NCBI RefSeq assembly: GCF_964355755.1
Contig: NC_092676.1
Span: forward strand, 8,967,888-9,031,887
Direction: 5' to 3'
Source: Antedon mediterranea
Taxonomy: Eukaryota > Animalia > Echinodermata
DNA: 64,000 nucleotides
A program made the translations under genes and the position numbers. The notes under the pieces are model-generated. The model saw nothing but the letters and a program-made list of their open reading frames with translations. It was not told the origin of the DNA and did no database searches. This document shows positions 2,923 through 37,427 of the stretch, in pieces; the first letter of the stretch is position 1, and each line of letters starts with the position of its first letter.

Positions 2923-5506
2923 TGTGGGGATTAATCTAATCATGTGATAATTAAATACTGCCCCCTATAGGTGTTACTGCCCCCTATAGGTGTTACTGCC
3001 CCCTATAATTGTAACAGTCTTTTTCAAATGATTTGCTTTCTTTTGTATTCATGAACCGGTCAAGGAAGCAGATAGTTTTGTCTCTTATTTAATTAAAGAT
3101 CTGATTAAAAGGTAATTACTCTACTTTATACATATATTACTTTGTTATACATTTATAAGATTCTGTTATGTTTAAGAAACATTAATGTTGTATTTTAAGA
3201 TGATTGCATTCATAGGCCTAGACATTTGTTTTGGGTTAACCTTGACTCATGGAATGTGCAGTTAGGAAGCCTATTGAATAGTATTGTGTTACAATCTTTG
3301 AACTAGGATTTTATGCCATATAATGTTATAATATATACTTTTGTGATAAACCTTCTTTGTATTAACAAAATATGTTTAGATAGATTTAGTAATGTTTAGT
3401 TTATAGAAGATAGTTTCTAGTTAACAGTTTGTATAAAATAGTTCATCCTACAGTTCACACTTGATTAATTTGTACACACGAGGCTACCATGCTCGTGATA
3501 GATCGTCATGTAGTGCGCCCTCTATTTATCATACAAAATGGCTGCGCCCATGGATTTGTTATTTATATATTTTACACAAACCTAAGATTATAACTCCTTG
3601 ATTCAATGAATAGACTAAGTTTAGTATTCAAATAGTGTGAGTAAATTCCAACATGCATTTATTCTAGTAATATAATAGTAATATTCAGGCACTTATGAAT
3701 ATGCAATTGTGTAGGTAATTAATTAGGTATTTGTATACTCTAACAAAGTATACAGAGGCTGTTTAGGTAGACGTGCCGTTTGATGTAATAGTCGCAGTCC
3801 TCAGAGAGAATCCTTTTTATTAGAGTCGCCTGTTAAGTTGAGGTCGTTACTAAGAATTGGCTTACGTATTTTAGAATATTATTTACTTTTGTTTCTCATT
3901 GTATTTATTTTGTGGTTTTCAGGACCATACTGATCTCTATTGTTATGCTAAAAACAAATTAAAACCAAATACACCACCGGACCGTGGTAAAAGTGAGAAA
4001 AGGCGTGTTTTTCCTTTTGTGTTGTCGTCCACATCCTTACAATTTGGTGTCAGAAGTGGGATCGTGGATCGTATTTGGCTTTAACATTAGAGATCAGTGA
4101 TGGCAAGCAAGGCATCGTTGCGAGATGTGCAGAGGACGGTTGATGAGCTAAGAGCCGAACTAGAAGCAACTAGGCGTGCTGCCCATGGTAATGGAAACAC
4201 AGTATATGTTCTCCCAGAGAAGAAGATGAGACACTTTGTGGGAGCCGAAGGGGAATGTGTAGAGTCCTTTGTTGAAGACGATGGTACTGGGGACGTTTAC
4301 CCTGACTGGCCTGATGATGCTGGCATTGACTCTGAAAATGCTGAAAAGATTCTTCTTGTTGTGAATAATATTAAGTTTGAGGACAAACTCAGCTTAAACA
4401 GGGGAGTGTGGGGATTAATCTAATCATGTGATAATTAAATACTGCCCCCTATAGGTGTTACTGCCCCCTATAATTGTAACAGTCTTTTTCAAATGATTTG
4501 CTTTCTTTTGTATTCATGAACCGGTCAAGGAAGCAGATAGTTTTGTCTCTTATTTAATTAAAGATCTGATTAAAAGGTAATTACTCTACTTTATACATAT
4601 ATTACTTTGTTATACATTTATAAGATTCTGTTATGTTTAAGAAACATTAATGTTGTATTTTAAGATGATTGCATTCATAGGCCTAGACATTTGTTTTGGG
4701 TTAACCTTGACTCATGGAATGTGCAGTTAGGAAGCCTATTGAATAGTATTGTGTTACAATCTTTGAACTAGGATTTTATGCCATATAATGTTATAATATA
4801 TACTTTTGTGATAAACCTTCTTTGTATTAACAAAATATGTTTAGATAGATTTAGTAATGTTTAGTTTATAGAAGATAGTTTCTAGTTAACAGTTTGTATA
4901 AAATAGTTCATCCTACAGTTCACACTTGATTAATTTGTACACACGAGGCTACCATGCTCGTGATAGATCGTCATGTAGTGCGCCCTCTATTTATCATACA
5001 AAATGGCTGCGCCCATGGATTTGTTATTTATATATTTTACACAAACCTAAGATTATAACTCCTTGATTCAATGAATAGACTAAGTTTAGTATTCAAATAG
5101 TGTGAGTAAATTCCAACATGCATTTATTCTAGTAATATAATAGTAATATTCAGGCACTTATGAATATGCAATTGTGTAGGTAATTAATTAGGTATTTGTA
5201 TACTCTAACAAAGTATACAGAGGCTGTTTAGGTAGACGTGCCGTTTGATGTAATAGTCGCAGTCCTCAGAGAGAATCCTTTTTATTAGAGTCGCCTGTTA
5301 AGTTGAGGTCGTTACTAAGAATTGGCTTACGTATTTTAGAATATTATTTACTTTTGTTTCTCATTGTATTTATTTTGTGGTTTTCAGGACCATACTGATC
5401 TCTATTGTTATGCTAAAAACAAATTAAAACCAAATACACCACCGGACCGTGGTAAAAGTGAGAAAAGGCGTGTTTTTCCTTTTGTGTTGTCGTCCACATC
5501 CTTACA
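2923..5506 (+). mobile_element. Non-autonomous Gypsy-type LTR retroelement (two ~1.1-kb LTRs, 365-bp interior)
   Basis: LTRs 2923-4041 and 4407-5506, both TGT...ACA. 4-bp TSD TATA (2919-2922, 5507-5510), with the empty site at ~12731. PBS TGGTGTCAGAAGTGGGAT at 4045-4062 (tRNA-Leu-like). PPT ...AGGGGAG ends at 4406. Confidence 0.95.
4097..4423 (+). pseudogene. Truncated gag N-terminus fused to the 3' end of the element
   Basis: ORF just after the PBS: a coiled-coil then TVYVLPEKKMRHFVG, resembling Gypsy gag starts. It runs through the PPT into the 3' LTR; no pol is present. Confidence 0.65.
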
Positions 5507-5624
5507 TATATAAATGTTTTGTTTTTTAGAAGTTCTTTTACAATAACTTTTTTTATCATAATTATGTGTAAAATGCATCACACAAAAAAAAGGGAATAGA
5601 GAATAAGAGAGATAATTATACGAA

Positions 5625-6055
5625 ATGGATTCCTTTGAGTTAGCGAAAAAAAGTATCGAGACTTGAGATGACGAGATGTGCAATAGCATGATAGAGAAGA
5701 TTTTGCAAGACTTTGATTTTTCGCAGATAGAAGTTACCTAATTAGGAGGAGGTGAAACAAGGCTTGAAAAATCTATAGCAGAGTTGAAGAAAGCAGTGCA
5801 GTGTTGCATTGCAAAAGAATTGAACGTTGGACGAATGATTACTAGTTTGACTTTAGCACGCCACCTATCTGACAGGTACAGCGGACACGAAAACAAATTT
5901 GCAGCGTTTGTCGCACAATGTTTCGAAGAAAGGTCCGATAGGGTTGATAATCGGAACTTGTGCTATTGCCACCAGGTCGGTAGAAGGAAAACAAGATAAA
6001 AGCAAGTTTGAACATATATACTGGAATGAATATACACGGATCTGACTGCCGCTAG
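5625..6055 (+). pseudogene. Orphan ORF with Bcl-2 BH1/BH2-like motifs, copy 1 (disrupted)
   Basis: MDSFELAKKSIET*DDEMCN...KELNVGRMITSLTLARHL...; two in-frame stops and two deletions relative to sister copies. The consensus of copies is an open ~159-aa frame. Confidence 0.55.
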
Positions 6056-6170
6056 GCCAGTAAATATATATTTTTATAGGCCAGTAAAATATATTTTTAT
6101 AGGCCAGTAAAAAATAATTTTTATAGGCCCGTAAAATATATTTTTTATAGGCCAGTAAAATATATTTATA
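6052..6170. repeat. Minisatellite, ~5 x 22-23 bp (TAGGCCAGTAAAATATATTTTTA)
   Basis: Directly visible; starts at the stop codon of the orphan ORF. Repeated at ~13279-13397 and ~24234-24352. Confidence 0.9.
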
Positions 6171-6440
6171 GTGTTAGTCGCGGTTGCTTCCCGCAGTCGT
6201 ACAATCGTCAAAGCGCAGTCGCTGCTTCATGCGATCAACAGTTTAAAAGAAAAAAATTTAAAAACCTGAAACAATTTGTCGTTTTCTTTTTCTTTTATTT
6301 TGATCTTCATACATTTTTACAGAAAAACTATGCAATGCAACTTGACTTAAAAACTAACTTTAAAAAAAAAAAGAAATCTCAGAGAAAATATGTCGTTTTT
6401 TTGCAATCAGAGCAGACCATGATGATATCGACAATTCATC

Positions 6441-7198
6441 TTATTTTACGCTGTTTTTTTTGGCCCTGAAACATTCAATATTCACGTAACCTACGGTTAG
6501 AAATTGCATCTTGTAGCCTTCTGACATCGGCATTCTCGATTGTTCGTAATCACCAAATTGTTGCATTATATACGCTATCGTGTTTACAGTCTCTTCTTCT
6601 TTGAATAACGGCCACAGTATCAAAATTCTTGCACATTTATTAAGTTCGAACATGATTTCCGAAACTACACCGCATTTCATTTTGCTTTCCGTAAGTATTT
6701 TCACCGTCCAGCGGCATTCTTCTAAAAATGCTTGTAATTTCTCTGCTACACCAAGAAATTTACCGCCGACTATTAAGAAATCGTACGGTTGCTTTTTTGT
6801 TGAAGGTGGCAGCGGAGGCAACAGCATAGTTGTGCTGACCTTCTGTATCAGGTCGGTTCTTTGTAGGAAAAAAAAACAACAACAATTTAGAATAAGATTT
6901 GAAGAAAAAAAATTGTTAGTAATATAATAATAGTATAATAGTAATAATTATGTAAACAAAAGAAGAAAAAAACTTACGAAGGAGGGATCTTGGCTAGCCT
7001 AGGGTCAAGCTGGTGATTTGTTGGCTTCGAGAAAATGACTGCTGGAAACATCTTGCTACAAGTATGTAATTTTCTCTGCGGTTCTTCTGTGTTATTTTCT
7101 TCTGTGTTATTCTTCTCGATGAAGCTAAGATTGTGTGAAGCTGTATTGAAACCTCTGTTCTTTATATAGTTTTCAACTGATGATGATGACATCATCAT
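6441..7198 (-). CDS. Two-exon orphan gene, 212 aa, TIR-like C-terminal domain, copy 1
   Basis: Exons 7198-6978 and 6858-6441. The 119-nt intron has a GTAAG donor, TACTAAC branch point and pyrimidine tract ending in AG. Splicing joins the 74-aa and 128-aa ORFs in frame (221+418=639 nt). CCAAT at ~7220. Confidence 0.7.
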
Positions 7199-7344
7199 TA
7201 ACGAATTTGGGAGATTCTGATTGGCCGGTTAATACATTTACAGTTTCATTTTAAAGTTTTTGTAATCTTACATTGTTAACTTTCACAGTTTTTTATGCTA
7301 AAGCTAGGCGTGGCCGAAACAAGTTAAATCCCTGCGCATGGTCA

Positions 7345-7410
7345 ACAGCCAATTGGTCTACAATTGTACCCTCAGGAAGCCCTCATTTGCATATCTCCGT
7401 GTATAAGAAA
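7345..7410 (+). promoter_or_regulatory. Histone H2B promoter (CCAAT, octamer, TATA)
   Basis: CCAAT at 7349, octamer ATTTGCAT at 7385-7392 and TATAA at 7402, upstream of the H2B ATG at 7469. The octamer is the established H2B subtype element. Confidence 0.85.
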
Positions 7411-7468
7411 TAAGCTTGTTTAACAACCAGTCACTTCAATTTTTTCATCGTGCATTAAATTGTGAAGC

Positions 7469-7524
7469 ATGCCACCAAAAACCTCAAAAAAAGCTGCTAA
7501 AAAAGCCGGTAAAGCCAAAGCCGT
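7469..7524 (+). pseudogene. H2B: Histone H2B N-terminal stub
   Basis: MPPKTSKKAAKKAGKAKA then an abrupt loss of similarity; no histone fold and no stem-loop. Confidence 0.85.
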
Positions 7525-8053
7525 AATATTCTACCAGTATAATCTTTAATACACATCTGTATTTTCTGATATAGACAACAATTTCAGAAGTCCATCAACA
7601 AAATTGTATTCTATACATCTCCATACAACCGTTATGATTAAACGAGTATAATGAATATTAATGAATAATCTATCAGAGAGAGAGAGAGGGAGAGAAAAAT
7701 AGTGTTTTTAATACAACACACGGAAACCCAGATGATGAGTTTGCCGGGCATCATTAACATCGAATTTTGACAATTATTCATAAACAATATTACAAATAAA
7801 ACAATTAGACATTTCTTTAAGGTCTTTTAAGCTTTAATTTTCTATTATATTTGTGCAATTCGCTATATGAATGTTTGTCTTAACCCGGACGTTATGTTTA
7901 GATATATATTTTTTTGTACTTTCCCATTTTTGTATTTTTCTTTTTTATTGTTATATTTTGTTTCTTTGGACGCACCTTAACAAGTTGAAGTGTGCCACTG
8001 ATAAAAAAAAAAAGTACAATGCCAAAAAATTGTTATTATTAATTATATCGATG

Positions 8054-8753
8054 ACAAATTTCGTTTTTGTAAAAGCACAAGTTAACGGAGTACTTACTCG
8101 AACGTTTCGATCTCTATCAGAGATCCTTCTCAACTGACTGCGGAGTGTTAATGCAGCTTGGTCATTCTTGACGTCATCTGTTGATGACGTTGTACGCCTC
8201 CGGTTGTAGGTTGGAGGTTGTGCGGGGCTCGGCCAGGTGATGTGTCTATCAAATCATTGTACAAATGCGAGAGTTCGTGGGCTCCAGTGTCCCGGTTCAT
8301 GGTCTTCTCTTTATTTCTCCTTATATGTAATGATTCTCTAATCTGTCTGTCTTTGCGTTTAGGCTCTTTGGTTAAGATGGTAGCCTCCCAGTTCGGTACA
8401 TGATTGTGTTTTATGACATGTTCTGTAATGGCAGATTTGTGTATGATCGAAGATGTGGATGTTCTGGAGGCCCTAGTCATTACTCTCCCCGTGTTTGTTG
8501 TAACAAGGGCCTCCAGAACATCCACATCTTCGATCCACACCCCCGCACAACCTCCAACCTACAACCGGAGGCGTACAACGTCATCAACAGATGACGTCAA
8601 GAATGACCAAGCTGCATTAACACTCCGCAGTCAGTTGAGAAGGATCTCTGATAGAGATCGAAACGTTCGAGTAAGTACTCCGTTAACTTGTGCTTTTACA
8701 AAAACGAAATTTGTCATCTATACAAAATCGAAGCTAAATGAAATTCTTTCAAG
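8054..8753 (-). mobile_element. Penelope-like element fragment (GIY-YIG C-terminus with inverted pseudo-LTRs)
   Basis: Minus-strand peptide KSAITEHVIKHNHVPNW..ILTKE...RQIRESLHIR...MNRDTG.HELSHLY. Inverted ~178-bp repeats at 8050-8227 and 8541-8718. Flanking duplication ATTAATTATATCGATG (8038-8053, 8754-8769). Absent at ~14750 and ~26230. Confidence 0.9.
8633..8668 (+). ncRNA. Minimal hammerhead-ribozyme-like motif in the Penelope pLTR (mirror copy ~8100-8135 on minus)
   Basis: TTGAGAAG-GATCTCT-GAT-AGAGATC-GAAAC: variant core, stem II hairpin and GAAA. Hammerheads are established in PLE pLTRs. Confidence 0.65.
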
Positions 8754-9279: not shown

Positions 9280-9657
9280 ATGTCTGGACGTGGTAAAGGA
9301 GGCAAAGCTAAAGGAAAGGCCAAGAGCCGATCAAGCCGTGCTGGACTTCAATTCCCAGTCGGTGGTGTTCACCGATTTTTACGAAAGGGCAACTATGCAT
9401 CCCGGGTTGGTGCTGGTGCTCCAGTCTACATGGCTGCTGTACTTGAGTATTTGACTGCTGAAATCTTAGAATTGGCCGGTAACGCTGCACGTGATAACAA
9501 GAAAGGCAGAATTATCCCTCGTCATCTGCAACTTGTCATCCGGAATGACGAAGAATTACACCGTCTTCTCGGAAGTTTAACCATTGCACAGGGAAGTGTA
9601 TTGCCAAACATCCAGGCTGTACTTCTACCAAAGAAGACTCAAAGCAAAGTCAAGTAA
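9280..9657 (+). CDS. H2A: Histone H2A, copy 1 (open but aberrant; probable pseudogene)
   Basis: Full 125-aa H2A with changes at invariant sites ([29 protein letters not shown]). The stem-loop at 9694-9709 carries a stem mismatch (GGCTCTTTTCAAAGCC). Confidence 0.93.
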
Positions 9658-11693: not shown

Positions 11694-12012
<319 letters not shown>

Positions 12013-12851
12013 ACTCGATGCTTTTTCAAAACACAAGGCTCTTTTCAGAGCCACCAGTTGAACCAAAAAGAGATTTATTTGCTTTTCTTTAATTGTTTAA
12101 TATGATTCAATAATTTCAAATAATCCAGTGATTTTTCAGAAATGTCTGGATTATTAAAATTATTTTTATTAAATTTGTTAAGAATTATTTTTTCAGGGGG
12201 ACAATACATCTTTAATAAATATAAACAAAGAAGGAGCTTCCTCCATGTCATAAAGCTAAAAATAAGATATGAATTAGGCATGTTTTTGTATTATACCATA
12301 TACTAAGATATACAAATAGTATTAAGTAATACTTAAGAGCCACCAGTTGAACCAAAAAGAGATTTATTTGCTTTTCTTAATTTTTTTAATATGATTAAAA
12401 AATTTCAAATAATCGATTGATTTTTCAGAAATGTATTGATTATTAAAATGTATTATAATAGAAAACCATTTTAGAGATCAATACTCACAAATAACAAACG
12501 TATTGTGGTAGCATTTACATTTTATGGTATTTTAACCTATATAGGCCTATGTAGAATAAAAGTAGTAACGCGGTAATAATTGATTTAGCACGAATTGGGA
12601 CGATTGCTCTCGCTTCTAAAAGTTACGTAATGAGTAACATTTTCTATATTTAAACAAATAAATACAAAATAGCGCCACATATGCCTTTGTTAACATAAAG
12701 AGTCACACGTCGTATAAGGAAAACACGCCTCATATATAAATGTTTTGTTTTTTAGAAGTTCTTTTACAATAACTTTTTTTTATCATAATTATGTGTAAAA
12801 TGCATCACACAAAAAAAAGGGAATATAGAATAAGAGAGATAATTATACGAA

Positions 12852-13282
12852 ATGGATTCCTTTGAGTTAGCGAAAAAAAGTATCGAGACTTGAGATGACG
12901 AGATGTGCAATAGCATGATAGAGAAGATTTTGCAAGACTTTGATTTTTCGCAGATAGAAGTTACCTAATTAGGAGGAGGTGAAACAAGGCTTGAAAAATC
13001 TATAGCAGAGTTGAAGAAAGCAGTGCAGTGTTGCATTGCAAAAGAATTGAACGTTGGACGAATGATTACTAGTTTGACTTTAGCACGCCACCTATCTGAC
13101 AGGTACAGCGGACACGAAAACAAATTTGCAGCGTTTGTCGCACAATGTTTCGAAGAAAGGTCCGATAGGGTTGATAATCGGAACTTGTGCTATTCCCACC
13201 AGGTCGGTAGAAGGAAAACAAGATAAAAGCAAGTTTGAACATATATACTGGAATGAATATACACGGATCTGACTGCCGCTAG
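12852..13282 (+). pseudogene. Bcl-2-like orphan ORF, copy 2 (disrupted)
   Basis: Near-identical to 5625-6055. Confidence 0.55.
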
Positions 13283-13666
13283 GCCAGTAAATATATATTT
13301 TTATAGGCCAGTAAAATATATTTTTATAGGCCAGTAAAAAATAATTTTTACAGGCCAGTAAAATATATTTTTTATAGGCCAGTAAAATATATTTATAGTG
13401 TTAGTTGCGGTTGCTTCCCGCAGTCGTACAATCGTCAAAGCGCAGTCGCTGCTTCATGCGATCAACAGTTTAAAAGAAAAAAATTTAAAAACCTGAAACA
13501 ATTTGTCGTTTTCTTTTTCTTTTATTTTGATCTTCATACATTTTTACAGAAAAACTATGCAATGCAACTTGACTTAAAAACTAACTTTAAAAAAAAAAGA
13601 AATCTCAGAGAAAATATGTCGTTTTTTTGCAATCAGAGCAGACCATGATGATATCGACAATTCATC

Positions 13667-14424
13667 TTATTTTACGCTGTTTTTTTTGGCCCTGAAACAT
13701 TCAATATTCACGTAACCTACGGTTAGAAATTGCATCTTGTAGCCTTCTGACATCGGCATTCTCGATTGTTCGTAATCACCAAATTGTTGCATTATATACG
13801 CTATCGTGTTTACAGTCTCTTCTTCTTTGAATAACGGCCACAGTATCAAAATTCTTGCACATTTATTTAGTTCGAACATGATTTCCGAAACTACACCGCA
13901 TTTCATTTTGCTTTCCGTTAGTATTTTCACCGTCCAGCGGCATTCTTCTAAAAATGCTTGTAATTTCTCTGCTACACCAAGAAATTTACCGCCGACTATT
14001 AAGAAATCGTACGGTTGCTTTTTTGTTGAAGGTGGCAGCGGAGGCAACAGCATAGTTGTGCTGACCTTCTGTATCAGGTCGGTTCTTTGTAGGAAAAAAA
14101 AACAACAAAAATTTAGAATAAGATTTGAAGAAAAAAAATTGTTAGTAATATAATAATAGTATAATAGTAATAATTATGTAAACAAAAGAAGAAAAAAACT
14201 TACGAAGGAGGGATCTTGGCTAGCCTAGGGTCAAGCTGGTGATTTGTTGGCTTCGAGAAAATGACTGCTGGAAACATCTTGCTACAAGTATGTAATTTTC
14301 TCTGCGGTTCTTCTGTGTTATTTTCTTCTGTGTTATTCTTCTCGATGAAGCTAAGATTGTGTGAAGCTGTATTGAAACCTCTGTTCTTTATATAGTTTTC
14401 AACTGATGATGATGACATCATCAT
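13667..14424 (-). CDS. Two-exon TIR-like orphan gene, copy 2
   Basis: Same exon and intron structure and same peptide as 6441-7198. Confidence 0.7.
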
Positions 14425-15268
14425 TAACGAATTTGGGAGATTCTGATTGGCCGGTTAATACATTTACAGTTTCATTTTATTTTCATAAACAATATTACAA
14501 ATAAAACAATTAGACATTTCTTTAAGGTCTTTTAAGCTTTAATTTTCTATTATATTTGTGCAATTCGCTATATGAATGTTTGTCTTAACCCGGACGGTTT
14601 GTTTAGATATATATTTTTTTGAACTTTCCCATTTTTGTATTTTTCTTTTTTATTGTTATATTTTGTTTCTTTGGACGCACCTTAACAAGTTGAAGTGTGC
14701 CACTGATAAAAAAAAAAAGTACAATGCCAAAAAATTGTTATTATTAATTATATCGATGTACTTTACAAAGTTATATAAAGTCTAAACTAAAAACACCTTC
14801 GTATAGCTACTGTCACTACCTAAAACTTAAATTCCCGAATTATGTATATAATCAAAATAAAGAAAAAGAGTAACACACTAATCATTTTTATCTAGTCATG
14901 CCCTTGTTATGAATAAAGCGTTAACAATTATCGTTGGCGCCAAAGCCCGTTGCCAATTCAATCATAGGTTTCCGAGAGGGTGTATTGAATATACTATTTA
15001 AATCGTGGTAAATGTTAAGTTGGTTTACTTGTTTACTTACTTGTATACTTGTTTCCGGAGCTCAGCAATGCTGGGTCCGGAGTCGAGGCTAGGCTATGCC
15101 TATAAGCCCCTCTTGATAATTACATCAACTCTTGAATATGGCGCAAATTTAAGAGGGTGGTTGGACCATGCCCGTTCAAGACCGGACTTAATTGGTTGGC
15201 AGAGTTGGTATCATTTTCAATATAGTATTCCAAAATAGTGTAAAAAATATAGCTATAGCTATAAAAAA

Positions 15269-18351: not shown

Positions 18352-18734
18352 ATGGATTCCTTTGAGTTAGCAAAAAAAAGTATCGAGACTAGAGATGACG
18401 AGATGCGCAATAGCATGATAGAGAAGATTTTGCAAGACTTTGATTTTTCGCAGAAAAAAGTTACATAATTAGGAGGAGGTGAAACAAGGCTTGAAAAATC
18501 TATAGCAGAGTTGAAGAAAGCAGTGCAGTATTGCATTGCAAAAGAATTGAACGTTGGACGAATGATTACTAGTTTGACTTTAGCACGCCTCCTATCTGAC
18601 AGGTACAGCGGACACGAAAACGAATTTGCAGCGTTTGTCGCACAATGTTTCGAAGAAAGGTCCGCCCGCTTCGGGTGGCCGGACATGCAGGGTTTGATAA
18701 TCGGAACTTGTGCTATTGCCACCAGGTCGGTAGA
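18352..18734 (+). pseudogene. Bcl-2-like orphan ORF, copy 3 (3'-truncated at a sub-repeat junction)
   Basis: Retains ...EERSARFGWPDMQGLIIGTCAIATRSVE then jumps to the H1-H4 spacer sequence. Confidence 0.55.
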
Positions 18735-19289
18735 ATATTATATATTATCTCTATTATAATAACAATTAAGTTTTTAGAAAATTTTGTACAGATAGTTGTA
18801 TTACCTTTTAATACTTATTTTACCGGTAGTACTGACATTAAAGCGTCGTGTTTCTTTGTCGTGAACGAAACATCACTACTATATCAAAATAATAACTAAT
18901 AATTAAATTGAAATAATGACTCATAACATATTCTTTTTTTTTCCATAATTAACTGTGCTGTTGATTGAATATTTATATATATAAAAGAGTAGTCCTTTTA
19001 TTTAATATTATTTTTTTTTGCAAAGACAAACAACGATGATTTTATTGACCCTTGCACTTACATTCCTCTTTGTTCAGTTTTATTCGTTACGATCATTGTA
19101 TATATAGTTTCGATGGTGGACGACTGACCCAATTTTTCTAGAGATATTTATGTTACTGACGAAATGCAAATTGACATAATTACAGTTGAGCAACGTCCGC
19201 ACAAAGCGTATAACTACTTCGGCATTTCGATTTTCGACAGTTTCCACACATTTCGAATAATTCTGAGTGATTCTTAATATCGATTAAAC

Positions 19290-20291: not shown

Positions 20292-20840
20292 CATATACTA
20301 AGATATACAAATAGTATTAAGTAATACTTAAGCGCCACCAGTTGAACCAAAAAGAGATTTATTTGCTTTTCTTTAATTTTTTAATATGATTAAAACATTT
20401 CAAATAATCGATTGATTTTTCAGAAATGTATTGATTATTAAAATGTATTATAATAGAAAACCATTTTAGAGATCAATACTCAACAAACGTATTGTGGTAG
20501 CATTTACATTTTATGGTATTTTAACCTATATAGGCCTATGTAAAATAAAAGTAGTAACGCGGTAATAATTGATTTAGCACGAATTGGGACGATTCCTCTC
20601 GCTTCTAAAAGTTACGTAATGAATAACATTTTCTATATTTAAACAAATACATACAAAATAGCGCCACATATGCCTTTGTTAACATAAAAAGTCACACGTC
20701 GTATAAGGAAAACACGCTTCATATATAAATGTTTTGTTTTTTAGAAGTTCTTTTAGAATAACTTTTTTTTATCATAATTATGGGTAAAATGCTTCACACA
20801 AAAAAAAGGGAATAGAGAATAAGAGAGATAATTATACGAA

Positions 20841-21223
20841 ATGGATTCCTTTGAGTTTGCGAAAAAAAGTATCGAGACTAGAGATGACGAGATGCGCAAT
20901 AGCATGATAGAGAAGATTTTGCAAGACTTTGATTTTTCGCAGATAGAAGTTACATAATTAGGAGGAGGTGAAACAAGGCTTGAAAAATCTATAGCAGAGT
21001 TGAAGAAAGCAGTGCAGTGTTGCATTGCAAAAGAATTGAACGTTGGACGAATGATTACTAGTTTGACTTTAGCACGCCTCCTATCTGACAGGTACAGCGG
21101 ACACGAAAACGAATTTGCAGCGTTTGTCGCACAATGTTTCGAAGAAAGGTCCGCCCGCTTCGGGTGGCCGGACATGCAGGGTTTGATAATCGGAACTTGT
21201 GCTATTGCCACCAGGTCGGTAGA
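20841..21223 (+). pseudogene. Bcl-2-like orphan ORF, copy 4 (3'-truncated)
   Basis: Same junction as copy 3. Confidence 0.55.
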
Positions 21224-21771
21224 ATATTATATATTATCTCTATTATAATAACAATTAAGTTTTTAGAAAATTTTGTACAGATAGTTGTATTACCTTTTAA
21301 TACTTATTTTACCGGTAGTACTGACATTAAAGCGTCGTGTTTCTTTGTCGTGAACGAAACATCACTACTATATCAAAATAATAACTAATAATTAAATTGA
21401 AATAATGACTCATAACATATTCTTTTTTTTTCCATAATTAACTGTGCTGTTGATTGAATATTTATATATATAAAAGAGTAGTCCTTTTATTTAATAATAT
21501 TTTATTTTGCAAAGACAAACAACGATGATTTTATTGACCCTTGCACTTACATTCCTTTTTGTTCAGTTTTATTCGTTACGATCATTGTATATATAGTTTC
21601 GATGGTGGACGACTGACCCAAATTTTCTAGAGATATTTATGTTACTGACGAAATGCAAATTGACATAATTACAGTTGAGCAACGTCCGCACAAAGCGTAT
21701 AAATACTTCGGCATTTCGACAGTTTCCACATATTTCGAATAATTCTGAGTGATTCTTAATATCGATTAAAC

Positions 21772-22083: not shown

Positions 22084-22912
22084 ACTCGATGCTTTTTCAA
22101 AACACAAGGCTCTTTTAGTAGAACCAAAAAGAGATTTATTTCCTTTTTTTTAATTGTTTAATATGATTCAATAATTTCAAATAATCCAGTGATTTTTCAG
22201 AAATGTATTGATTATTAAAATAATTTTTCTTAAATTTGTTAAGAATTATTTTTTCAGGGGGACAATACATCTTTAATAAATATAAACAAAGAAGGAGCTT
22301 CCTCCATGTCATAAAGCTAAAAATATAAGATATGAATTAGGCATGTTTTTGTATTATACCATATACTAAGATATACAAATAGTATTAAGTAATACTTAAG
22401 AACCACCAGTTGAACCAAAAGAGATTTATTTGCTTTTCTTTAATTTTTTAATATGATTTAAAAATTTCAAATAATCGATTGATTTTTCAGAAATGTATTG
22501 ATTATTAAAATGTATTATAATAGAAAACCATTTTAGAGATCAATACTCACAAATAACAAACGTATTGTGGTAGCATTTACATTTTATGGTATTTTAACCT
22601 ATATAGGCCTATGTAAAATAAAAGTAGTAACGCGGTAATAATTGATTTAGCACGAATTGGGACGATTCCTCTCGCTTCTAAAAGTTACGTAATGAGTAAC
22701 ATTTTCTATATTTAAACAAATACATACAAAATAGCGCCACATATGCCTTTGTTAACATAAAGAGTCACACGTCGTATAAGGAAAACACGCCTCTTATATA
22801 AATGTTTTGTTTTTTAGAAGTTCTTTTACTATAGCTTTTTTTATCATAATTATGTGTAAAATGCTTCACACAAAAAAAAGGGAATAGAGAATAAGAGAGA
22901 TAATTATACGAA

Positions 22913-24237
22913 ATAGATTCCTTTGAGTTAGCGAAAAAAAGTATCGAGACTAGAGATGACGAGATGTGCAATAGCATGATAGAGAAGATTTTGCAAGACT
23001 TTAATTTTTCGCAGATAGAAGTTACCTTATTAGGAGGAGGTGAAACAAGGCTTGAAAAATCTATAGCAGAGTTGAAGAAAGCAGTGCAAAAGAATTGAAC
23101 GTTGGACGAATGATTACTAGTTTGACTTTAGCACGCCACCTATCTGACAGGTACAGCGGACACGAAAACGAATTTGCAGCGGTTGTCGCACAATGTTTCC
23201 GCCCGCTTCGGGTGGCCGGATGCGATTTTTTTTTTCGTTGTTGGGGACCCCCTCATGAAACATCACAAAATAAACATGAATAATTCATCAGTTAAATTTT
23301 CTTGTTTCGTGTGCACCCAAGCGTATAGCAACAAGAAGTGATTAGGTACACAAGTGCGGTACGATTCTAGGCCTAATCTCCGCTGTGGTTGCCGCGTGGG
23401 ATTTCATAAAAGAATAGCCGCGTTTTGTGTGGATTGTCGAAATAATCAGCCTTTAGTTTATGGTGTTTTTAATATAATTTATTACTAAAGAATTACTTGT
23501 TAAAATTATAGTTTCTATTAATACTATTAGGCCTAATTATTAGTCTCTAAACCCATATTCTAGTAGTAGCTGTGTGGGTGTGTGTGACGTGTGTGTGTTA
23601 GGTATGACACAGTCCGAGTAATAAGTCAGCAAAATTAAACATTAAACATTACACAAAAATACATTTTTTATTCTCGTGGGTCTAATCTTCCCATCTCATG
23701 TGTTCATATACGCGCATTTTTAAAGTTCCTTTGAGTACATGCATATTGTTTGATAATAAAATAGCAGAATTAAAAAATTACAGTACACAAATTATACACA
23801 TTTTTTATTCTTGTGGGTCTAAGCTTTCTTTGGGCTATGTCCAATTACTACTTAGTTTAATGTCTTGCCTAGCTGTCGCGAAGGCAATCACGTGAATTGA
23901 CCTAGAATCCTAGGCCTACTGTAGAAAGAATCGTATCGCAGTTTAGTTGTGCGTGTAATCACTTCTTGTTGCTATACGCTTGGTTGCAGACGGAACAACA
24001 AATTTAACTGATGAATTATTCATGTTTATTTTGTAACGTTTCACGAGGGGTCCCCAACTTGTGTACGAAAAAAAAAATCGCTGGCCGGACATGCAGGGTT
24101 TGATAATCGGAACTTGTGCTATTGCCACCAGGTCGGTAGAAGGAAAACCAATTTTTATGATCGAGGAGGCGCGCAAGATAAAAGCAAGTTTGAACATATA
24201 TACTGGAATGAATATACACGGATCTGACTGCCGCTAG
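22913..24237 (+). pseudogene. Bcl-2-like orphan ORF, copy 5, split by a DNA transposon
   Basis: Start ATA. Lacks both stops seen in copies 1-2 (ACT AGA; ACC TTA TTA) and keeps the full 3' part ...VEGKPIFMIEEARKIKASLNIYTGMNIHGSDCR*. Confidence 0.55.
23222..24081. mobile_element. Non-autonomous MULE/Mutator-like DNA transposon, 860 bp
   Basis: ~145-bp imperfect TIRs (GCGATTTTTTTTTTCGT... / ...ACGAAAAAAAAAATCGC). 9-bp TSD TGGCCGGAT/TGGCCGGAC, with the empty site at ~18675. Confidence 0.85.
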
Positions 24238-24620
24238 GCCAGTAAATATATATTTTTATAGGCCAGTAAAATATATTTTTATAGGCCAGTAAAAAATAAT
24301 TTTTATAGGCCAGTAAAATATATTTTTTATAGGCCAGTAAAATATATTTATAGTGTTAGTCGCGGTTGCTTCCCGCAGTCGTACAATCGTCAAAGCGCAG
24401 TCGCTGCTTCATGCGATCAACAGTTTAAAAGAAAAAATTAAAAAACCTGAATCAATTTGTCGTTTTCTTTTTCTTTTATTTTGATCTTCATACATTTTTA
24501 CAGAAAAACTATGCAATGCAACTTGACTTAAAAACTAACTTAAAAAAAAAAAGAAATCTCAGAGAAAATATGTCGTTTTTTTGCAATCAGAGCAGACCAT
24601 GATGATATCGACAATTCATC

Positions 24621-25378
24621 TTATTTTACGCTGTTTTTTTTGGCCCTGAAACATTCAATATTCACGTAACCTACGGTTAGAAATTGCATCTTGTAGCCTT
24701 CTGACATCGGCATTCTCGATTGTTCGTAATCACCAAATTGTTGCATTATATACGCTATCGTGTTTACAGTCTCTTCTTCTTTGAATAACGGCCACAGTAT
24801 CAAAATTCTTGCACATTTATTTAGTTCGAACATGATTTCCGAAACTACACCGCATTTCATTTTGCTTTCCGTAAGTATTTTCACCGTCCAGCGGCATTCT
24901 TCTAAAAATGCTTGTAATTTCTCTGCTACACCAAGAAATTTACCGCCGACTATTAAGAAATCGTACGGTTGCTTTTTTGTTGAAGGTGGCAGCGGAGGCA
25001 ACAGCATAGTTGTGCTGACCTTCTGTATCAGGTCGGTTCTTTGTAGGAAAAAAAAACAACAACAATTTAGAATAAGATTTGAAGAAAAAAAATTGTTAGT
25101 AATATAATAATAGTATAATAGTAATAATTATGTAAACAAAAGAAGAAAAAAACTTACGAAGGAGGGATCTTGGCTAGCCTAGGGTCAAGCTGGTGATTTG
25201 TTGGCTTCGAGAAAATGACTGCTGGAAACATCTTGCTACAAGTATGTAATTTTCTCTGCGGTTCTTCTGTGTTATTTTCTTCTGTGTTATTCTTCTCGAT
25301 GAAGCTAAGATTGTGTGAAGCTGTATTGAAACCTCTGTTCTTTATATAGTTTTCAACTGGTGATGATGACATCATCAT
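24621..25378 (-). CDS. Two-exon TIR-like orphan gene, copy 3
   Basis: Same structure, one S>P change in exon 1. Confidence 0.7.
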
Positions 25379-25648
25379 TAACGAATTTGGGAGATTCTGA
25401 TTGGCCGGTTAATACATTTACAGTTTCATTTTAAAGTTTTTGTAATCTTACATTGTTAACTTTCACAGTTTTTTATGCTAAAGCTAGGCGTGGCCGAAAC
25501 AAGTTAAATCCCTGCGCATGGTCAACAGCCAATTGGTCTACAATTGTACCCTCAGGAAGCCCTCATTTGCATATCTCCGTGTATAAGAAATAAGCTTGTT
25601 TAACAACCAGTCACTTCAATTTTTTCATCGTGCATTAAATTGTGAAGC

Positions 25649-25704
25649 ATGCCACCAAAAACCTCAAAAAAAGCTGCTAAAAAAGCCGGTAAAGCCAAAG
25701 CCGT
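25649..25704 (+). pseudogene. H2B: Histone H2B stub, copy 2 (promoter at ~25525-25590)
   Basis: Identical to 7469-7524, with octamer and CCAAT upstream. Confidence 0.85.
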
Positions 25705-29063: not shown

Positions 29064-31996
29064 ATTTGAGATTTGAGGAAGTTCCGAAAACTGATCGTTA
29101 AATGTATTCCGACTAATGAAACATTACGGCCAGGTTTCCCCGAATGGTAAGACATAATTATAGGAACTCAGAACACGCTTGTTAATGAACTCATCTCTTA
29201 TTTACATTTAGTATTTACAAATCTTGCATTATTTATAAAACAAGCAAACGGATTATCACTTGGAATTTATTTAAGATAGAACTATTTAAAAAAATTTAAT
29301 TAATAAAAGCAATATTATGTTCAAAATGTAAAACTATACAATTTTATAAAAGTATCCAAACAAAACATAATCTTATAATGCAATATACCATTTTATCATA
29401 TTTATTTATATTATATCGAATCTCTTTTTAATACTGAATATCAATCTTTATATCGTTTTAGCTCTGTAATATAAATTTTCTCTGTATACATGTTTGTTTT
29501 ATCTAGACTTGAACACAATTTCAAAATATTTTACATAATCTTCCTCTGTCTGTGTAATATCACCTAAATATTCATTGATAAATAGATAGATAGACAGACA
29601 TATATATTGTAACCTTCACCATATTGTTGTTTATCATTGCAATAAAAGTGGGTTTCCCCCACAAAAGAGAAAAAAAATATATATTGCTGAAATTAAGCCT
29701 CAATAAATAATATTGTTGAGAAGAGGAACACATTTATACAGTATATAATTATATCCCATTTTCATGCATAAAGCAATAGTATCTGCCTCTGAAGCACCAC
29801 CAACAAGATATTATTTTTTTTAAATATATCCCATGTATAAGCAATATTATTATCTATCTGCCTCTGACGTCTCCAAGCACCATGAACAAGCATTTTGGAA
29901 CATCTTCATCCACGGTGACGCTTGTAATGTCTCCCGCCAATCTTGCGGCATCCATGGCCATTGCCACGTCAAAGTTGTACGCTCTGGATGAGGCATGATC
30001 GCCAGATGACGGCCATCTGCGGAGCAAATTGCCGCTACGCCATTGGGTGAGCCATTGGGGTTCAACGGGTATTCAGTTGTCACTTCTCCTTTGTCATCGA
30101 TAAAGCGCACTGGTGCAAGATTTTCAGACAGAACTGTGTCTTTTGTTTCTTTGTTAGAAAACTTCATGTGCCCTAGAGAGAAACAATTTGAGTTGAGTAA
30201 ATTTAATAACATTTTTAGTTAAATTAAAATATAAGTTTGTACTAAGCATCCATCATTATCAAGAGGTATCAATATCTAACCTTCTCCATGCTGTGTCCAG
30301 ACACCAAGCACAGAGCCTTCCATTCCTTTCAGCATTAAAGCAGGGCTTTCATTAATCTTTACAGCAACAAAACGAGACTCAAAACGCTCGGAAAGATTAT
30401 GAGCAAGATGGACTCCTTGCTGAGCTGATGCTGCGTCTAAAAGACAATAACAAATAATTCATAATAAACAGTCTGTCAACAAATGGATATCAAAAAGTAG
30501 TTCATATTTTCTTTTTACTTGTCAAAGAGGCATTACCTGCTTTACACCGGTGTCCTACTACCACTACACTACTTACTAAATATACCTCATGATACCTTAC
30601 CTGTAGTAAGCTCCTTGGTGACATCTGGAGCAACCCAGCCTAGCAGGCCCATTAGTTGGCAGCCATTGCATACACCCAGTGAGAAAGTGTCTTTCCTTGC
30701 TCTAAATGCATCAAACTGAGCACGCACAGCTGGGTTGAACAAAATAGTTGCTGCCCAACCTAAAATGATTAATAAACATTATTTAAATAAACTAGAATAA
30801 ATATTTATTTAGGTTACTATCTGTCTAATACTAGTATAATACTTGGTTACTGCTCCAGCATGTATTTTTGCTATGCTACAAAAAGTGCAATCAGAAAAGT
30901 ATACCTTTTGCAGAACCACAAACGTCTGCAAAACTGAAGCCACCAACAAAAACTACTCCACGGAATTGATCGAGGGTGACTTTCCCGCAAGCTAAATCTT
31001 GCATATTGACGTCCCATGTTTCAAAGCCAGCCATGTGTAGTGTTGAACTCATCTCTCGATCTCCATTACTGCCTTCCTCACGGATCACAGCAACCTTTGG
31101 TTTCATTCCATCTATGGAAGGCCAATTATGATTATGTATATGGTAACTAATGAGCCAAATTTAACTCGTATTACTTTAACAAATTAAAATTCAGAACAAG
31201 ATAATCAATATTCCAAAATTGGTTCTAACCTTTAGAGCATCTTTTTTTAACAGAATTCAAATTTGTTGCAACGGGGTCAAAGGTTAATTTAAATGGTGGT
31301 GCTGTTCTATTTGCTAAATTGCGTTGCTCCACTTCAACACACTCTGGATTTGCTTGTAGTTTTTCCAGTTGAAAACTAGTCTCTTCCCACACGTCTCTAA
31401 GAACAGTCATCTTTTCATTCAAGACTTCTTTCTCATTTACCGAGATGACAACCTATAATTGACATGTAAAATATTCAGATTCATTCTAAAAACCATCATA
31501 AATGATAAATGATCGTAAATAAATGTTCAAATATTGCTTCCATTTAAAAAAAAAAAAACTTACTATTGACCCTTGACCTGATCCACTAGAGTGACCAATT
31601 AGAGAACAAGGGACATTATTGTCACTGAACTGTCTACAAATGTCCTCACTAGCATTAGCTGTTACTTCTAACACCAGCCCTACTTCTTCAGCAAACAGAA
31701 TATCAATTGCAGTTACTGAAAATAAATATATAAAGTCTTACAATGTATTATTGCTTACCAGAGGTTCTGGAACTATATGAAAGATTAAAATGACACTTTA
31801 CAGATCCATTCGAGGCATTTATAGAGATAGCATAATGCTTACCATCAGGTTTGGAAAGTTTGACGTCAATACCACAATTCCCAGAAAACGCCATTTCTAA
31901 TAATGTTGTTACAATACCGCCATCACTAATATCATGACCAGCTGATATTTTTCTATCTACAAAAGGATACAAAAGACAAAGTTGAATTCATATCTC

Positions 31997-32151
31997 TAAA
32001 GCTCTGTCTACACTATCAAACTTTATGTGATGTGATATGCCCATATATGGACATGATATCATATCACTACCATTTTTGGGCATTTCACTACCCTATTTAG
32101 GCGCATCACATTTTTTTGTCAAACTAGTTTGATAGTGTAGACAGCGCTTTA
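31997..32151. mobile_element. MITE in a PFAS intron (PIF/Harbinger-like termini)
   Basis: TIR AGCTCTGTCTACACTATCAAACT ... AGTTTGATAGTGTAGACAGCGCT, flanked by TAA/TTA. Related partial copy at ~35827-35934; duplicates at ~45075-45229 and ~48890-48998. Confidence 0.75.
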
Positions 32152-33459
32152 TATTATAACTACAAGTAAATAAATTTATTGTAAACGTCTAATTAATAAG
32201 TCTATGAAAATGACTACCTTTGATAAGATTTTGCGTTGTGTTGAAAGCCCTTACAAACGTTTCCGGTTCATCGAGATCAGGCGAGGATTGTCCGAGTTGA
32301 TTATAGCACTGAGCGAGGGCACTACCACCTAACCGGTTATGCCTTTTACCAAATGAAACCCAGAGCAAAGTCCCTGAAATAGAATATGTAAAGTCTTGTT
32401 TATAAATATATTATATTTTTTGTTTGTTTAGGTAGTTAATTTAATTGTACCTAACAAAATGTGCAATGTTATATTCACTTTACCTTTACTGTCTGGACAT
32501 TTAAGGTCAGGGGTCACAGTTGCAGTAATATCTGGGCATGCCACATACACAGACACAACCAATGCACCTAAAAAATTGTAATTGATATTTCATTATTAGT
32601 AAGTAAATGGAGTAAAGAAGTGTATTAGTGTATTCAAGCTTAACTTATTAAAATAATTCACAAGATTGTACATCAGACTCTATACTAGTTATTAACAAGC
32701 ATGAAATGTCTAACCTGGAGCTTTGATCGTTTCAGAGCCTATCCTGGCAGCCATACTCAAAGAGTCCTTCCCACCATCCACAGCAACACCCAACTTGCCC
32801 ATCACCTCGCACATAGCCTCGCATGCATCATACAATGCAGCACCCTCACCAGGAAGCTTCGCTGGCCACATCCAGTTACCGCTACATTTGACATCTTTAA
32901 GATCGGAGACCCTAGCAAACACAAGATTGGTAAGGGCTTCTCCTACAGACATCCTGGCACCACAGCCAGGATCGACTAACCCTTTAATAGGCTGCTCTCC
33001 AATGGCTGTAGCTGAGCCTACAGTTTCAAAGTGGGAGAGTGCGGTAACAGCAACATCAGCGAGTGGTGTGTGCAGGGGGCCTACACATTGCTGCTGGGCT
33101 ATCAGGCCAGTGACAGCACGATCAACCTAACAGAAACAATATATCCTGGTTATACACTTTCCATATTCCTTCACACAAATAGATTATGCAATATTAAAGA
33201 TAAACAGATCTTTACCTTATTAGTCAAAAATCTTTTACTGGCTACTGAAGGTAGACGCAGAACACGGTCGAGTGCACATCGGACAGTCAACCCATCAGGT
33301 AGTGTTAACTGCATAAGTTTTGGTTTACATCGATCATACTTGAAAACCTGAGAGAAAAAAAAATATAATTCTATATAATTTTACAGACAGAAAGAGACAC
33401 TATTATTATAACACATAATTATTTTCAATGGTTATTTATGATGAAATCTGTGAGATTGA

Positions 33460-33540
33460 GAAAAAGTGACCTCAGCTGAGATTTGAACCTGGAATCTTCT
33501 GCTTGATATGCAGACATCCTACCATTACACCACTGATGCA
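33460..33540 (-). mobile_element. tRNA-derived SINE head or tRNA pseudogene in an intron
   Basis: Minus strand has TGGTGTAATGG (A box) and GGTTCAAATC (B box) but no clean cloverleaf. Duplicate at ~46540-46618. Confidence 0.5.
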
Positions 33541-36500
33541 TTCATGGTATGGTTCAAACTTATTACCGACACTACTCTACTATCAAGTCTCCATCATACC
33601 TTTTGCGGCATCTTTCCAAGAACCCATTCAAGTTGGAGATCAACTGGATAAGTAAGTGCTGTTCTTTTTATGCTTGGAGGTTCTGCATCACCCTTACCAG
33701 CTTCCACTTTCTTTTCCACCTCAAGACGAATCTGAAACAAAACAAAATATTTTTGTATTGCAAAACTCTTATGCACTCTATCTGTGCATGAAAAGGCATT
33801 CTTCAAAATTAGTAACACTGTAGTATTTAAATGTGTTTTTTCATACTTATCCCACAGTAAGCACAAACTTGCCAATTACAGGATGGATAAAATATTTTAT
33901 AGTTTATCGTGCTTATAAACTAAGTTTTATTTCAGGCTTAGGGAGTGAAGTTGAAAGAGTCGTGAGTTACAACCCTTGACCTTGATTGAACCCTTGACCT
34001 TGGAATTGGAAGGCAAGCATGTTAAACCACCAAGCAACAGCTCCACTAAAAAAATTTAGAATAAAGTAGGTAAAAAAAATCATCCAAATATTACCTTCCC
34101 ATCACCTGTAATGTCACCAACAAAAACAGCTGGACATTTCTCTCTGTCACAAATATCTTGAAGTTTTTCTTGATCCTCAGATCGTATTAGTATGGCATTG
34201 GACTCCTGGTATTCTGCACCCCATAGTTCTAAGGTGTTGATGGTTGGATCACCTAGTTGGAATTCCTTAGCTTTTATTAGAGCACCTGCAGGTTCACATA
34301 TCTCCTTTAAAACATTACCTGTACACAAAAAAATGATTTAATTGGTCAGATGTTAGCCATAGTTTGACATAAAAATAAGTACATTTGTCTGACAAAGTGT
34401 CCCCTTAATAGGGATGTCCCAAATGAGGGGTGCTACTGTACTTAGTAAAATAATAAAAATAAGCACATTGCATGCAAACTCACCATTGCCTCCAGCTCCT
34501 TGATCATGTATACTACATATAGGGTTTGTATCAACCATCTCAATGCACGCCCTTATAACTCGGTTTAGTTTCTGTTCCATCTCCGCATCACCGCGCTGCA
34601 CGGCTTCAAAGTCCAGTTTTTCTGTATTGTCACCTTGAACTTGAATGGAAGATGCAGCGCCCCCACCGACTCCGATGCGATAGATTGGTCCACCAAGTTT
34701 TACAATTTTCATTCCTGCATGGTAAACAATTATTTATCAGTCAATAATTAGTTTTCAATGGAGAAATAAAAACAAAATATTTTATCAGGTTACTATAATC
34801 TTATTTTATATGACAGACATATAATATCTATGTGGAGACAACAATAATAAGAAGTACAGTATTTTTTATGGTGTTGTATTTAGTTTGTTTAACAAACCTT
34901 TTTCTGCTTCGTCTTTAGTCGCATGCATACTCTCAAGCATCCCAATACCCCCGCTGAACATAATGGGCTTGACCCACTCTCTTCTGTCGCTCTCAGAAAG
35001 CATCATGCCAAATGAACGAGAGAAACCGGTTAGAACGGGTTCACCAAACTTGTTGCCGTAGTCAGATGCACCGTTGCTGGCCTCTACAGCAACCGACAGA
35101 GCAGGCGCCATGTTGCTAGGATAAACCATATTTTTGTCCTCCCATGGAAGGTCATACCCTGTTTAAACAAAATGTTCAATCAATGATAATAAATAATTAA
35201 TTACACTGAATATATAACATTTATAAAAAGCAAAATTATGTAATTAAGCAAGCAATTATGCCTGTTCACTGCATGCGTTACTTAATATCTTTCATCCCAT
35301 ACTCTATTTATACATATAAGTGCCAGTAAATGAATATCTTTTAATTGTTGTTACTTTGCAAATCTTTGATAAGGTTTATCCTTTATATTTGTATATTTGT
35401 TATGTTTTATTTTCTGTTATATTTGTATTTATTTTGATTTTTGAGCGAGTAAAGTCTGACATCAATTTTCATAAGGACTACAAAATCTAATTTTTAGATT
35501 TATATAATTTACCTGGAATGTTCAAATTTCCAAAACAGTAGCCTGCAGTGCCAGCCACTACATGTGCCCCCTTCCCTGCAGCCTGAACATCACGTATCCT
35601 ACCCCCAGTACCAGTTGTAGCCCCTGGGAAAGGTGCAACCCCAGTTGGAAAGTTATGGGTCTCTGCTGTGAAGATGATATGCCTGAGTGGTTCAGATTCC
35701 TCCATCACACTTGCTGACCCGGGATTGGCTGGTTTGAGAACTTTGACCTTATGGCCTTTGATTGCACTGAAAATCAAGTAAAGTCATCAAAGTGAGAAAA
35801 AACAGTATAGGTTCATTGACAACATTTAAAGCTCCTACTGTCCCCAAATATGGTAGTGATATGACATCATCATATCCATATATGGGCACATCACATTTTT
35901 TTACATAAAAGTTGATAGTGTAGACAGAGCTTTAGGCAATACTTTGTGGTTCAACAAAATGTGAATAAATATCATTTACGATGGAAATTATGCCTGTAGT
36001 ATTTTATGGGCTATTTCATGACACCCTCTAGAACTAATAATTTCAGGTATAATGCCTAATTCTGTCCAGCACAACAAGATTTATACAAGAGTCATAGACA
36101 CCATTCCAGTGAACTATATCGTGATTCGATTCGGAAAATATGGATATAAATATAAAAGCCACGTAAAATGTTAAGATACCTGCTGTTATCCGAGAATTTA
36201 ATGACGTTGTTATCATTGCTGGTAGCTTGCGTTGACATCACCATCTTGAATAAAGAATGATCTTTTTCTTCTCCATCGATTACCATCTTACCCTTAAAAA
36301 ACCAATGACGACTATGCTCACTAGAAAGAAGACAGAAAGCAAGAAAAAACCATTTGTAGGAATATTTTCAGGAATTTCTAAATACAGTAATGAAAGCTGA
36401 GAAATGTTGCATAGATGAAAAGAATTTAAGTAAAGAATGGTCTATGTCTTAGGATTATCCATGGTTACAAATACTATTTTACATTATTTTAGGCTAGAAG

Positions 36501-37171: not shown

Positions 37172-37427
37172 TTAAAGACCTATTCCCTACAATTTTTGCC
37201 TTGTCTTTTCTGTTTTATGGTAAATTATGATAAAAAGAAAGAAACAATGCACATGCACAATGCATGTTATGATTTATAGAAAGTCTCTAAATGATTAGAA
37301 TCAACTTATTTTTCACATTTTTAACAGTTTTAAAGACGAAAAAGTGATCGCATACATATTTATTTTTACATTAAATGTAGTTTGTGACCTATAATTAGAT
37401 CTAAAAACGTAGGAAATGGGACTTTAA
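37172..37427. mobile_element. TTAA-flanked MITE (Kolobok-like)
   Basis: TTAA-AGACCTATTCCCTAC ... GTAGGAAATGGGACT-TTAA, imperfect 15-bp TIR. Confidence 0.5.

Follow-up and report, generated by a model that had tools for sequence, protein, structure and literature searches.

In the crinoid Antedon mediterranea, a histone gene repeat has likely captured a pair of protein-coding genes in a lineage-specific manner and has amplified this pair along with itself, in a cluster of histone genes that is now dying. The window (the whole stretch of DNA that was analyzed, 64,000 nucleotides in length) contains three copies of a TIR-like gene, all of which are open, and five copies of a Bcl-2-like open reading frame (ORF), all of which are broken. 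The explanation toward which we lean is that a pre-existing, fast-evolving Antedon gene pair was joined into the spacer between H4 and H2B by a rearrangement and was then passively multiplied by tandem duplication.

The passengers known so far from histone repeats are RNA genes, and the way in which these entered is described as an open gap in section 18 of a 2026 review (PMC13525598). The capture step becomes testable here, since the left border is defined at the base level and a relative has both the pair and an empty spacer. Both proteins are orphans that standard profiles miss, which points to a hidden diversity of TIR and Bcl-2 proteins in crinoids. If dead units alone carry the pair, the case would be a modest one of passive hitchhiking. 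A literature search, made mostly without subscription papers and taking in PMC13525598 without its Supplemental Table S1, found no earlier description of this case in its listings.

A repeated gene pair in a decayed histone cluster

The first 29 kb of the window is a jumbled tandem histone cluster with the order H1-H4-[block]-H2B-H2A, in which the histone genes all lie on one strand; the same gene order and strand are described for other echinoderm quintets (PMC13525598). The remainder of the window holds a duplicated PFAS gene and satellites. The block is composed of a plus-strand ORF (ATG at 5625) and, convergent to it, a two-exon gene on the minus strand (7198..6441), both located in the interval from an H4 copy to the H2B promoter (Table 1). 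As the earlier note on this DNA had described, the convergent pair is repeated at 12852-14424 and 22913-25378; the first two units are 99.4% alike over 1750 nt. The statement that every full unit carries both genes holds for these three units, and there are two extra Bcl-2-like copies (18352 and 20841) that are truncated and have no TIR-like gene. The block measures ~1.6 kb and not the ~2.5 kb that had been proposed, a length reached in the third unit only, owing to an insert of 860 nt. Similarly, the minisatellite previously given as 22 bp has a unit of 23-24 nt in 4.9 copies; it is ~47 nt shorter in organism B, the close relative considered below.

An intact H1/H2A/H2B/H3/H4 quintet is not found in the window, and its histone units are decayed and non-functional. 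This decay, like that of the Bcl-2-like copies, had been missed by the earlier note. The 3' stem-loops are kept, but H4 is frameshifted or stopped in all six of its copies, and H2B is reduced to a stub: both H2B starts end after 18 codons and the second unit, in which the H2B promoter is deleted after 14479, has no H2B start at all. A six-frame motif scan of the window, with at most two mismatches allowed, found none of four H3 motifs and none of three motifs of the H2B core. The H1 start codon is missing in two of four copies. H2A is open in all three of its frames, yet each differs by 7-9 changes from the ordinary H2A of the species. In the first unit the H2B promoter is back to back with that of the TIR-like gene.

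Table 1. Positions of the block, its genes and the neighboring histone sequences in the window
Feature	Position	Strand	Remarks
LTR-like insert	2923..5506	+	A pair of ~1.1-kb direct repeats with TG..CA ends; ~75 nt to the left of the block, within the H4 spacer, in unit 1 only
Left border of inserted block	12808..12827 (5581-5600 in unit 1)		Histone spacer of organism B matches to 12808, its pair copy from 12827
Bcl-2-like copy 1	5625..6055	+	Stopped at codons 14 and 39; 3' third has lost 23 nt and 26 nt; position of the 3' end uncertain
Minisatellite	6053..6167; also 13280-13394, 24235-24349		Unit and copy number in text
TIR-like exon 2, copy 1	6441..6858	-	Open frame with the domain
TIR-like intron, copy 1	6859..6977	-	119 nt, GT..AG
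TIR-like exon 1, copy 1	6978..7198	-	According to RefSeq model
H2B promoter and stub	7300..7522	+	CCAAT, octamer at 7385; 18-codon H2B stub from 7469
H2A	9280..9657	+	Open; 8 changes from ordinary A. mediterranea H2A
Other H2A copies	15269, 26564
H4 upstream of block	11697..12076	+	Frameshifted, with 3' stem-loop
Further broken H4 copies	near 1878, 17553, 19290, 21772, 28855
H4 3'-end duplicates, ~120 nt	2516-2637, 12333-12454, 20328-20449, 22396-22516
Bcl-2-like copy 2	12852..13282	+	Breaks as in copy 1
TIR-like gene, copy 2	13667..14424	-	Open; exon 2 starts at 14084
Bcl-2-like partial copy	18352..18735	+	Stop at codon 39, cut after codon 128, no TIR-like gene
Bcl-2-like partial copy	20841..21224	+	Truncated beyond codon 128; stop at codon 39; TIR-like gene absent; read with X, query P0002
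Bcl-2-like copy, unit 3	22913..24237	+	No start codon; 13 nt and 11 nt deleted; interrupted by insert
MITE-like insert	23222..24081		860 nt, inverted ends, 8-9-nt target duplication; secondary, inside unit-3 Bcl-2-like copy
TIR-like gene, copy 3	24621..25378	-	Open; one exon-1 residue different

Two inserts, the LTR-like and the MITE-like one, were tried as ends of the block and rejected because each is found in one unit only; the LTR-like one is not part of the block. Within the interval searched (22700-25700), the block is not enclosed by any long inverted pair. The LTR-like element is non-autonomous, with a tRNA-primer-like site at ~4043, a short TA-rich target duplication and a 107-aa ORF that has no Pfam match. 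The MITE-like insert sits in the BH2 region, and its junction has a contig of its own with a depth of 544 in sequencing run X1; the form with the insert may therefore exist in several copies. The H4 3'-end duplicates, which begin in the second half of the stem-loop, lie 290 nt downstream of the genuine H4 3' end. The histone cluster breaks off within an H4 copy at ~29063, and the PFAS duplication follows directly.

The two passenger genes

The minus-strand gene encodes a protein 100% identical to the RefSeq model XP_071956715.1 (Antedon mediterranea, 212 aa, uncharacterised), which is the sole member of its cluster, with one accession; the phase of the intron joins the exons as in that model. 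The three copies are near-identical, and the two differences in exon 2 are both silent. A TATA-like box (7161-7168) and a CCAAT (7220-7224) flank the modelled ATG on either side, and hence the real translation start may be a later Met, at residue 50.

The earlier assignment of this protein to the TIR domains, made by eye, finds concordant lead-level results in both Atlas and a structural model; no profile matches it. Pfam returned 0 families (TIR, TIR_2 and SEFIR among those looked for) at E up to 10 or 0.1, NCBIfam and PADLOC were also blank, the PDB sequence search had no matches and the homologue searches retrieved only the window's own record. In Atlas, which works on language-model features, exon 2 falls among TIR clusters (0.86-0.89), and the clusters nearest to the whole protein, among those that are named, are TIRAP (0.87), TICAM-2 (TRAM, 0.86) and CIKS/SEFIR (0.83); the bar of the tool is 0.9, and all of these TIR scores are lead-level. 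The TIR family is named in seven of ten Atlas structure rows, all below the naming bar, one being a 107-aa TIR with a TM of 0.71. TIR domains have a flavodoxin-like parallel beta/alpha fold. The single-sequence model (pLDDT 56, with 77-83 at residues 31-60) consists of three strand-helix (beta-alpha) units and later strands. Against the TIR domains 3h16 and 6wt7 it gives VIA Z 6.8 (rmsd 3.3-3.8, 91-98 residues aligned), a value with which receiver and tRNA-synthetase domains tie over fewer residues. A second, Foldseek-led comparison listed tRNA synthetases only; no Foldseek E was under 0.001 and the TIR of human TLR1 ranked 47.

On the first predicted strand, the sequence YDFLIVG is identical at three of seven positions to the Box 1 consensus YDVFISY (PMC7075850). 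The Box 2 loop reads ESKMKCG, with the glycine alone kept, and Box 3 is absent. The usual WCxxE stretch, a feature of the NAD-cleaving, SARM1-type TIR, is not seen by eye in the protein. It is probably a divergent TIR-only protein that would work like an adaptor or a decoy. TIRAP/MAL and TICAM-2/TRAM, to whose Atlas clusters it lies nearest, are likewise of ~200-230 aa with a low-complexity N-terminus followed by one TIR-like domain, and the TIRAP group is also reported to have no Box 3 (PMC7075850). Membership of TIRAP (group 10) was nonetheless rejected: the protein has neither of the Box 1 cysteines of YDVCVCH and no RDxxPG in Box 2. It differs further from these adaptors in having no sequence-level match to them, and in being from an echinoderm. 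A separate contig of X1 (depth 132) resembles TIR exon 1 together with its promoter (14253-14478) at 88% and runs on into other sequence; it is possibly an older TIR-like paralogue in A. mediterranea.

The plus-strand ORF is likely Bcl-2-like, judging by its motifs. All five copies are broken, whether by stops, frameshifts, loss of the start or an insert, with a stop at codon 14 in two and at codon 39 in four. All five retain the BH1 core as NVGR, in which the W of NWGR has become V. The BH1 motif is NWGR followed by a hydrophobic run (PMC8998228), and sites S74, T76 and L77 of the window copies read V, A and (in organism B only) F in stop-free contigs; these stop-free relatives are therefore closer to such a run than the window copies are. 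At BH2, FGW (in place of GGW) is found in the copies at 18352 and 20841 and in run X5, while the tryptophan is replaced in organism B and deleted in units 1 and 2. BH1 and BH2 are ~42 residues apart, as against ~50 in the Bcl-2 family. A BH1-like core followed by GW was present in none of 100 simulated 64-kb sequences, the pattern having been chosen after the sequence was viewed; the core alone arises 0.18 times per simulated 64-kb sequence, and the window has one unrelated match to it at ~8.5 kb. ATG frames of at least 122 codons occur 0.37 times per simulated 29 kb, so the length of the ORF by itself proves little.

The ORF has no clear BH3 and no clear membrane anchor; beyond GW there is just one weakly apolar run, of 11 residues. 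The codon of the BH2 tryptophan is not followed by GT, i.e. there is no intron at a place where pro-survival Bcl-2 genes from sponge to mouse have one (PMC8998228); anchor and intron can both be absent in viral members of the family (PMC7022251). The motifs thus speak for the Bcl-2 assignment of the earlier note, and the searches by profile, PDB sequence, phmmer and fold all came back empty. With the decayed copies as queries there were 0 Pfam families and none in NCBIfam or PADLOC; the PDB sequence and homologue searches returned nothing, nor did phmmer with P0002 over 1.84 billion representatives. The single-sequence model is poor (pLDDT 47) and all helical, with the BH1 motif at a helix start; fold searches with this poor model, BFVD included, gave nothing above Z 4.9 or E 2.6 and listed no Bcl-2 chain, a result that, with such a model, counts neither for nor against the fold.

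Relatives and the history of the join

The window stretch is present in eight runs from three studies, and four of these eight were compared; no RNA run is among the listed runs that contain it. Run X1 is from A. mediterranea and is probably the source of the window, X5 is from the same species in another study, and X6 and X8 are two samples, in one study, of organism B. Contig depths are used throughout as hints and not as copy numbers.

In organism B both genes, together with the intron, lie on one contig (1978 or 1856 nt) that is ~95% alike to the window. The region corresponding to 12770-13285 is divided there between two kinds of contig. A deep histone-spacer contig (depth 422 and 1459) matches 12774-12808 only and then departs, ~44 nt before the Bcl-2-like ATG; the pair contig, with depths of 20.8 and 110, or ~1/13 to 1/20 of those of the spacer, matches from 12827 on and is preceded there by 206 or 84 letters that are unrelated. 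The earlier note had called for an alignment with the functional histone unit; the histone spacer of B gives the left border at the base level. The next 20 letters of the B spacer are absent from the window at three mismatches, which indicates that the spacer was replaced and not split by a clean insertion. That contig without the block also led us to reject the idea, set out in the earlier note as grounds for abandoning its own proposal, that the block is ordinary spacer of functional histone units.

Since the spacer of B is without the block and its pair stands behind another left flank, the pair likely joined the histone unit in the A. mediterranea lineage and was amplified with it, and B keeps an empty spacer and, apparently elsewhere and at low copy, the pair. 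The proposal of a block that landed in a histone unit and then multiplied by tandem amplification is, to this extent, borne out. In X1 the main pair contigs (depths 1462 and 1389) and the window-type H4 contigs (2083 and 2248) are of the same order, again as a hint and not a copy number. The B pair contig continues for 98 letters past its last match, and these may abut H2B. Another deep contig of B (X6 and X8) joins the H2A 3' spacer straight to the H1 tail (window 10089/16782), and so many B units seem to be without most of H1.

These comparisons can be accommodated by the following scenario. The pair, whose products are predicted to be a TIR-only adaptor and, likely, a member of the Bcl-2 family, would already have been in Antedon when a one-off rearrangement joined it into the H4-H2B spacer of a histone unit. 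A join ~44 nt upstream of the Bcl-2-like ATG would have severed this gene from its own upstream DNA, and the TIR-like gene would have kept a promoter facing away from H2B. Tandem duplication of the histone unit, presumably with unequal crossing-over as the amplifier, would then have multiplied the pair passively. The TIR product could be a non-enzymatic TIR-TIR scaffold or a dampener of Toll-like signalling, and an intact Bcl-2-like product would bind BH3 helices. The spliceosomal intron of the TIR-like gene and the echinoderm gene order and strand count in favor of such a host-gene explanation; that neither protein has a homologue beyond the window's own record is unusual for host Bcl-2 or TIR genes and counts against it.

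The substitutions of the Bcl-2-like frame on the window lineage are as expected for neutral decay, with one synonymous change in nine, as against 19.5% synonymous sites, plus the stops. Between B and X5, the listed changes (three of B's 18 differences are unlisted) comprise five non-synonymous and one synonymous, B's lost BH2 tryptophan among them. Neither set, and the numbers are tiny, carries a sign of purifying selection.

Other origins of the pair and known parallels

The earlier note had suggested a captured viral or large-transposon module, and we considered in this light that the pair might have come from an animal DNA virus or Polinton-like element as an accessory module, have been endogenised before the two species parted, and only afterwards have reached a histone unit. 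The compact convergent layout, the lack of host homologues for either protein and a Bcl-2-like frame that crosses GW without the splice donor expected of pro-survival genes (PMC8998228) would all suit such an origin. Viral Bcl-2 proteins often cannot be recognised from their sequence (PMC7022251) and adintoviruses carry Bcl2 homologues (PMC8502044); for these reasons, and because both proteins are orphans, we continue to give viral ancestry some weight, though we think it unlikely. Against it, no termini were found around the block in the interval searched and no relatives in viral contigs, metagenome contigs or BFVD (where the query was a poor model), and the 74 non-redundant ORFs of the window (of at least 75 aa; 124 in total) include no capsid, PolB, integrase, ATPase or Rep-helicase. 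As these searches turned up no element ends, viral hallmark genes or viral relatives, a viral origin is unsupported. The TIR-like gene, moreover, has an intron and resembles the chordate adaptors in size and features, and the word TIR occurs 0 times in the main text of the adintovirus paper (PMC8502044).

A still less probable alternative is that the pair is a working passenger of functional A. mediterranea histone units, selected for dosage or histone-linked expression, of which the window would be a decayed offshoot. One 848-nt contig of X5 extends from histone spacer (12420) over the border as far as 13219; it contains neither of the two stops and retains the 23-nt BH2 stretch, which means that there may be an intact passenger. 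This contig is ~3% from the window whereas the other X5 histone-unit contigs are at ~1%, which suggests a second lineage of units. Another X5 contig over TIR exon 2 (depth 48) ceases to match at 14084, the very position of the splice acceptor, and has 30 further letters, a hint of spliced RNA, the RNA nature of X5 being itself a guess. The TIR frames are open in all copies, their exon-2 differences silent, but H2A is also open in dead units, and the open TIR frame is therefore weak evidence. Moreover, the codon-39 stop is kept in the dominant path of X1, the RefSeq TIR protein is a one-member cluster, and in no X5 contig is the copy without stops linked to an H4 or H2B that is intact. In its fullest form, which we regard as improbable too, working units would carry an intact, transcribed pair of Bcl-2-like and TIR-adaptor-like genes, with the TIR-like gene and H2B back to back over their promoter region, and the histone array would be both the amplifier and the expression platform of an immunity/cell-death cassette, possibly viral.

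The least probable reading, in which the TIR-like gene alone is real and its partner is an unrelated helical orphan or an old dead ORF, could draw on the lack of profile and fold support, the BH1-BH2 spacing, the unclear BH3 and membrane tail and the BH2 tryptophan lost in B, but it sits poorly with the simulations, with relatives whose BH1 is closer to the family pattern than that of the window copy, at sites that the analyst did not choose, and with the predicted all-helical layout.

We return to the capture of a pre-existing pair, for which the closest parallels are histone repeats with 5S rRNA or an rRNA cistron as the non-histone passenger, as in brine shrimp, mussels, the boll weevil and freshwater snails (PMC13525598, section 18 and Fig. 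5 legend). There, too, a non-histone gene lies inside the repeated unit and is amplified with it; in A. mediterranea the passengers are two protein-coding, polymerase-II genes, of which one has an intron, they occur in one species' units and are absent at that place in a close relative, and the units are decayed. The viral and divergent host proteins of the Bcl-2 fold (poxvirus, herpesvirus, adintovirus) share with the plus-strand ORF a small size, a helical layout, NxGR, GW, the lack of the BH2 intron and the failure of Pfam to detect them; the ORF differs in that no viral context or relative was found for it, its fold is putative and its window copies are broken. The window cluster itself resembles the dispersed, pseudogenising histone clusters known as orphon-type. 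As in these, H4 is broken, H2B is a stub, H3 has been lost and H2A is drifting, and there are secondary inserts and an unrelated neighbour gene (PFAS); unlike them it bears and multiplies a foreign gene pair, and its X1 contigs are at high depth.

Several other elements accompany the cluster. An insert with 185-nt inverted arms (8043-8725) contains a fragment that by eye resembles a Penelope-type GIY-YIG endonuclease, with no Pfam match. The PFAS/FGAR amidotransferase gene, multi-exon and on the minus strand, lies in a 10.2-kb segmental duplication (29069-39236 and 42145-52320) whose copies are 98.8% alike; inside each is a tRNA-Asp call with an unusual ATC anticodon (33468-33539 and 46546-46617), probably a pseudo-tRNA. 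An endonuclease fragment of a LINE-type element lies at 39248-39622 (weak Exo_endo_phos_2, E 0.006), and satellite arrays with a 172-174-nt unit occupy 40797-41273 and 52468-54786, with an inversion point near 54180.
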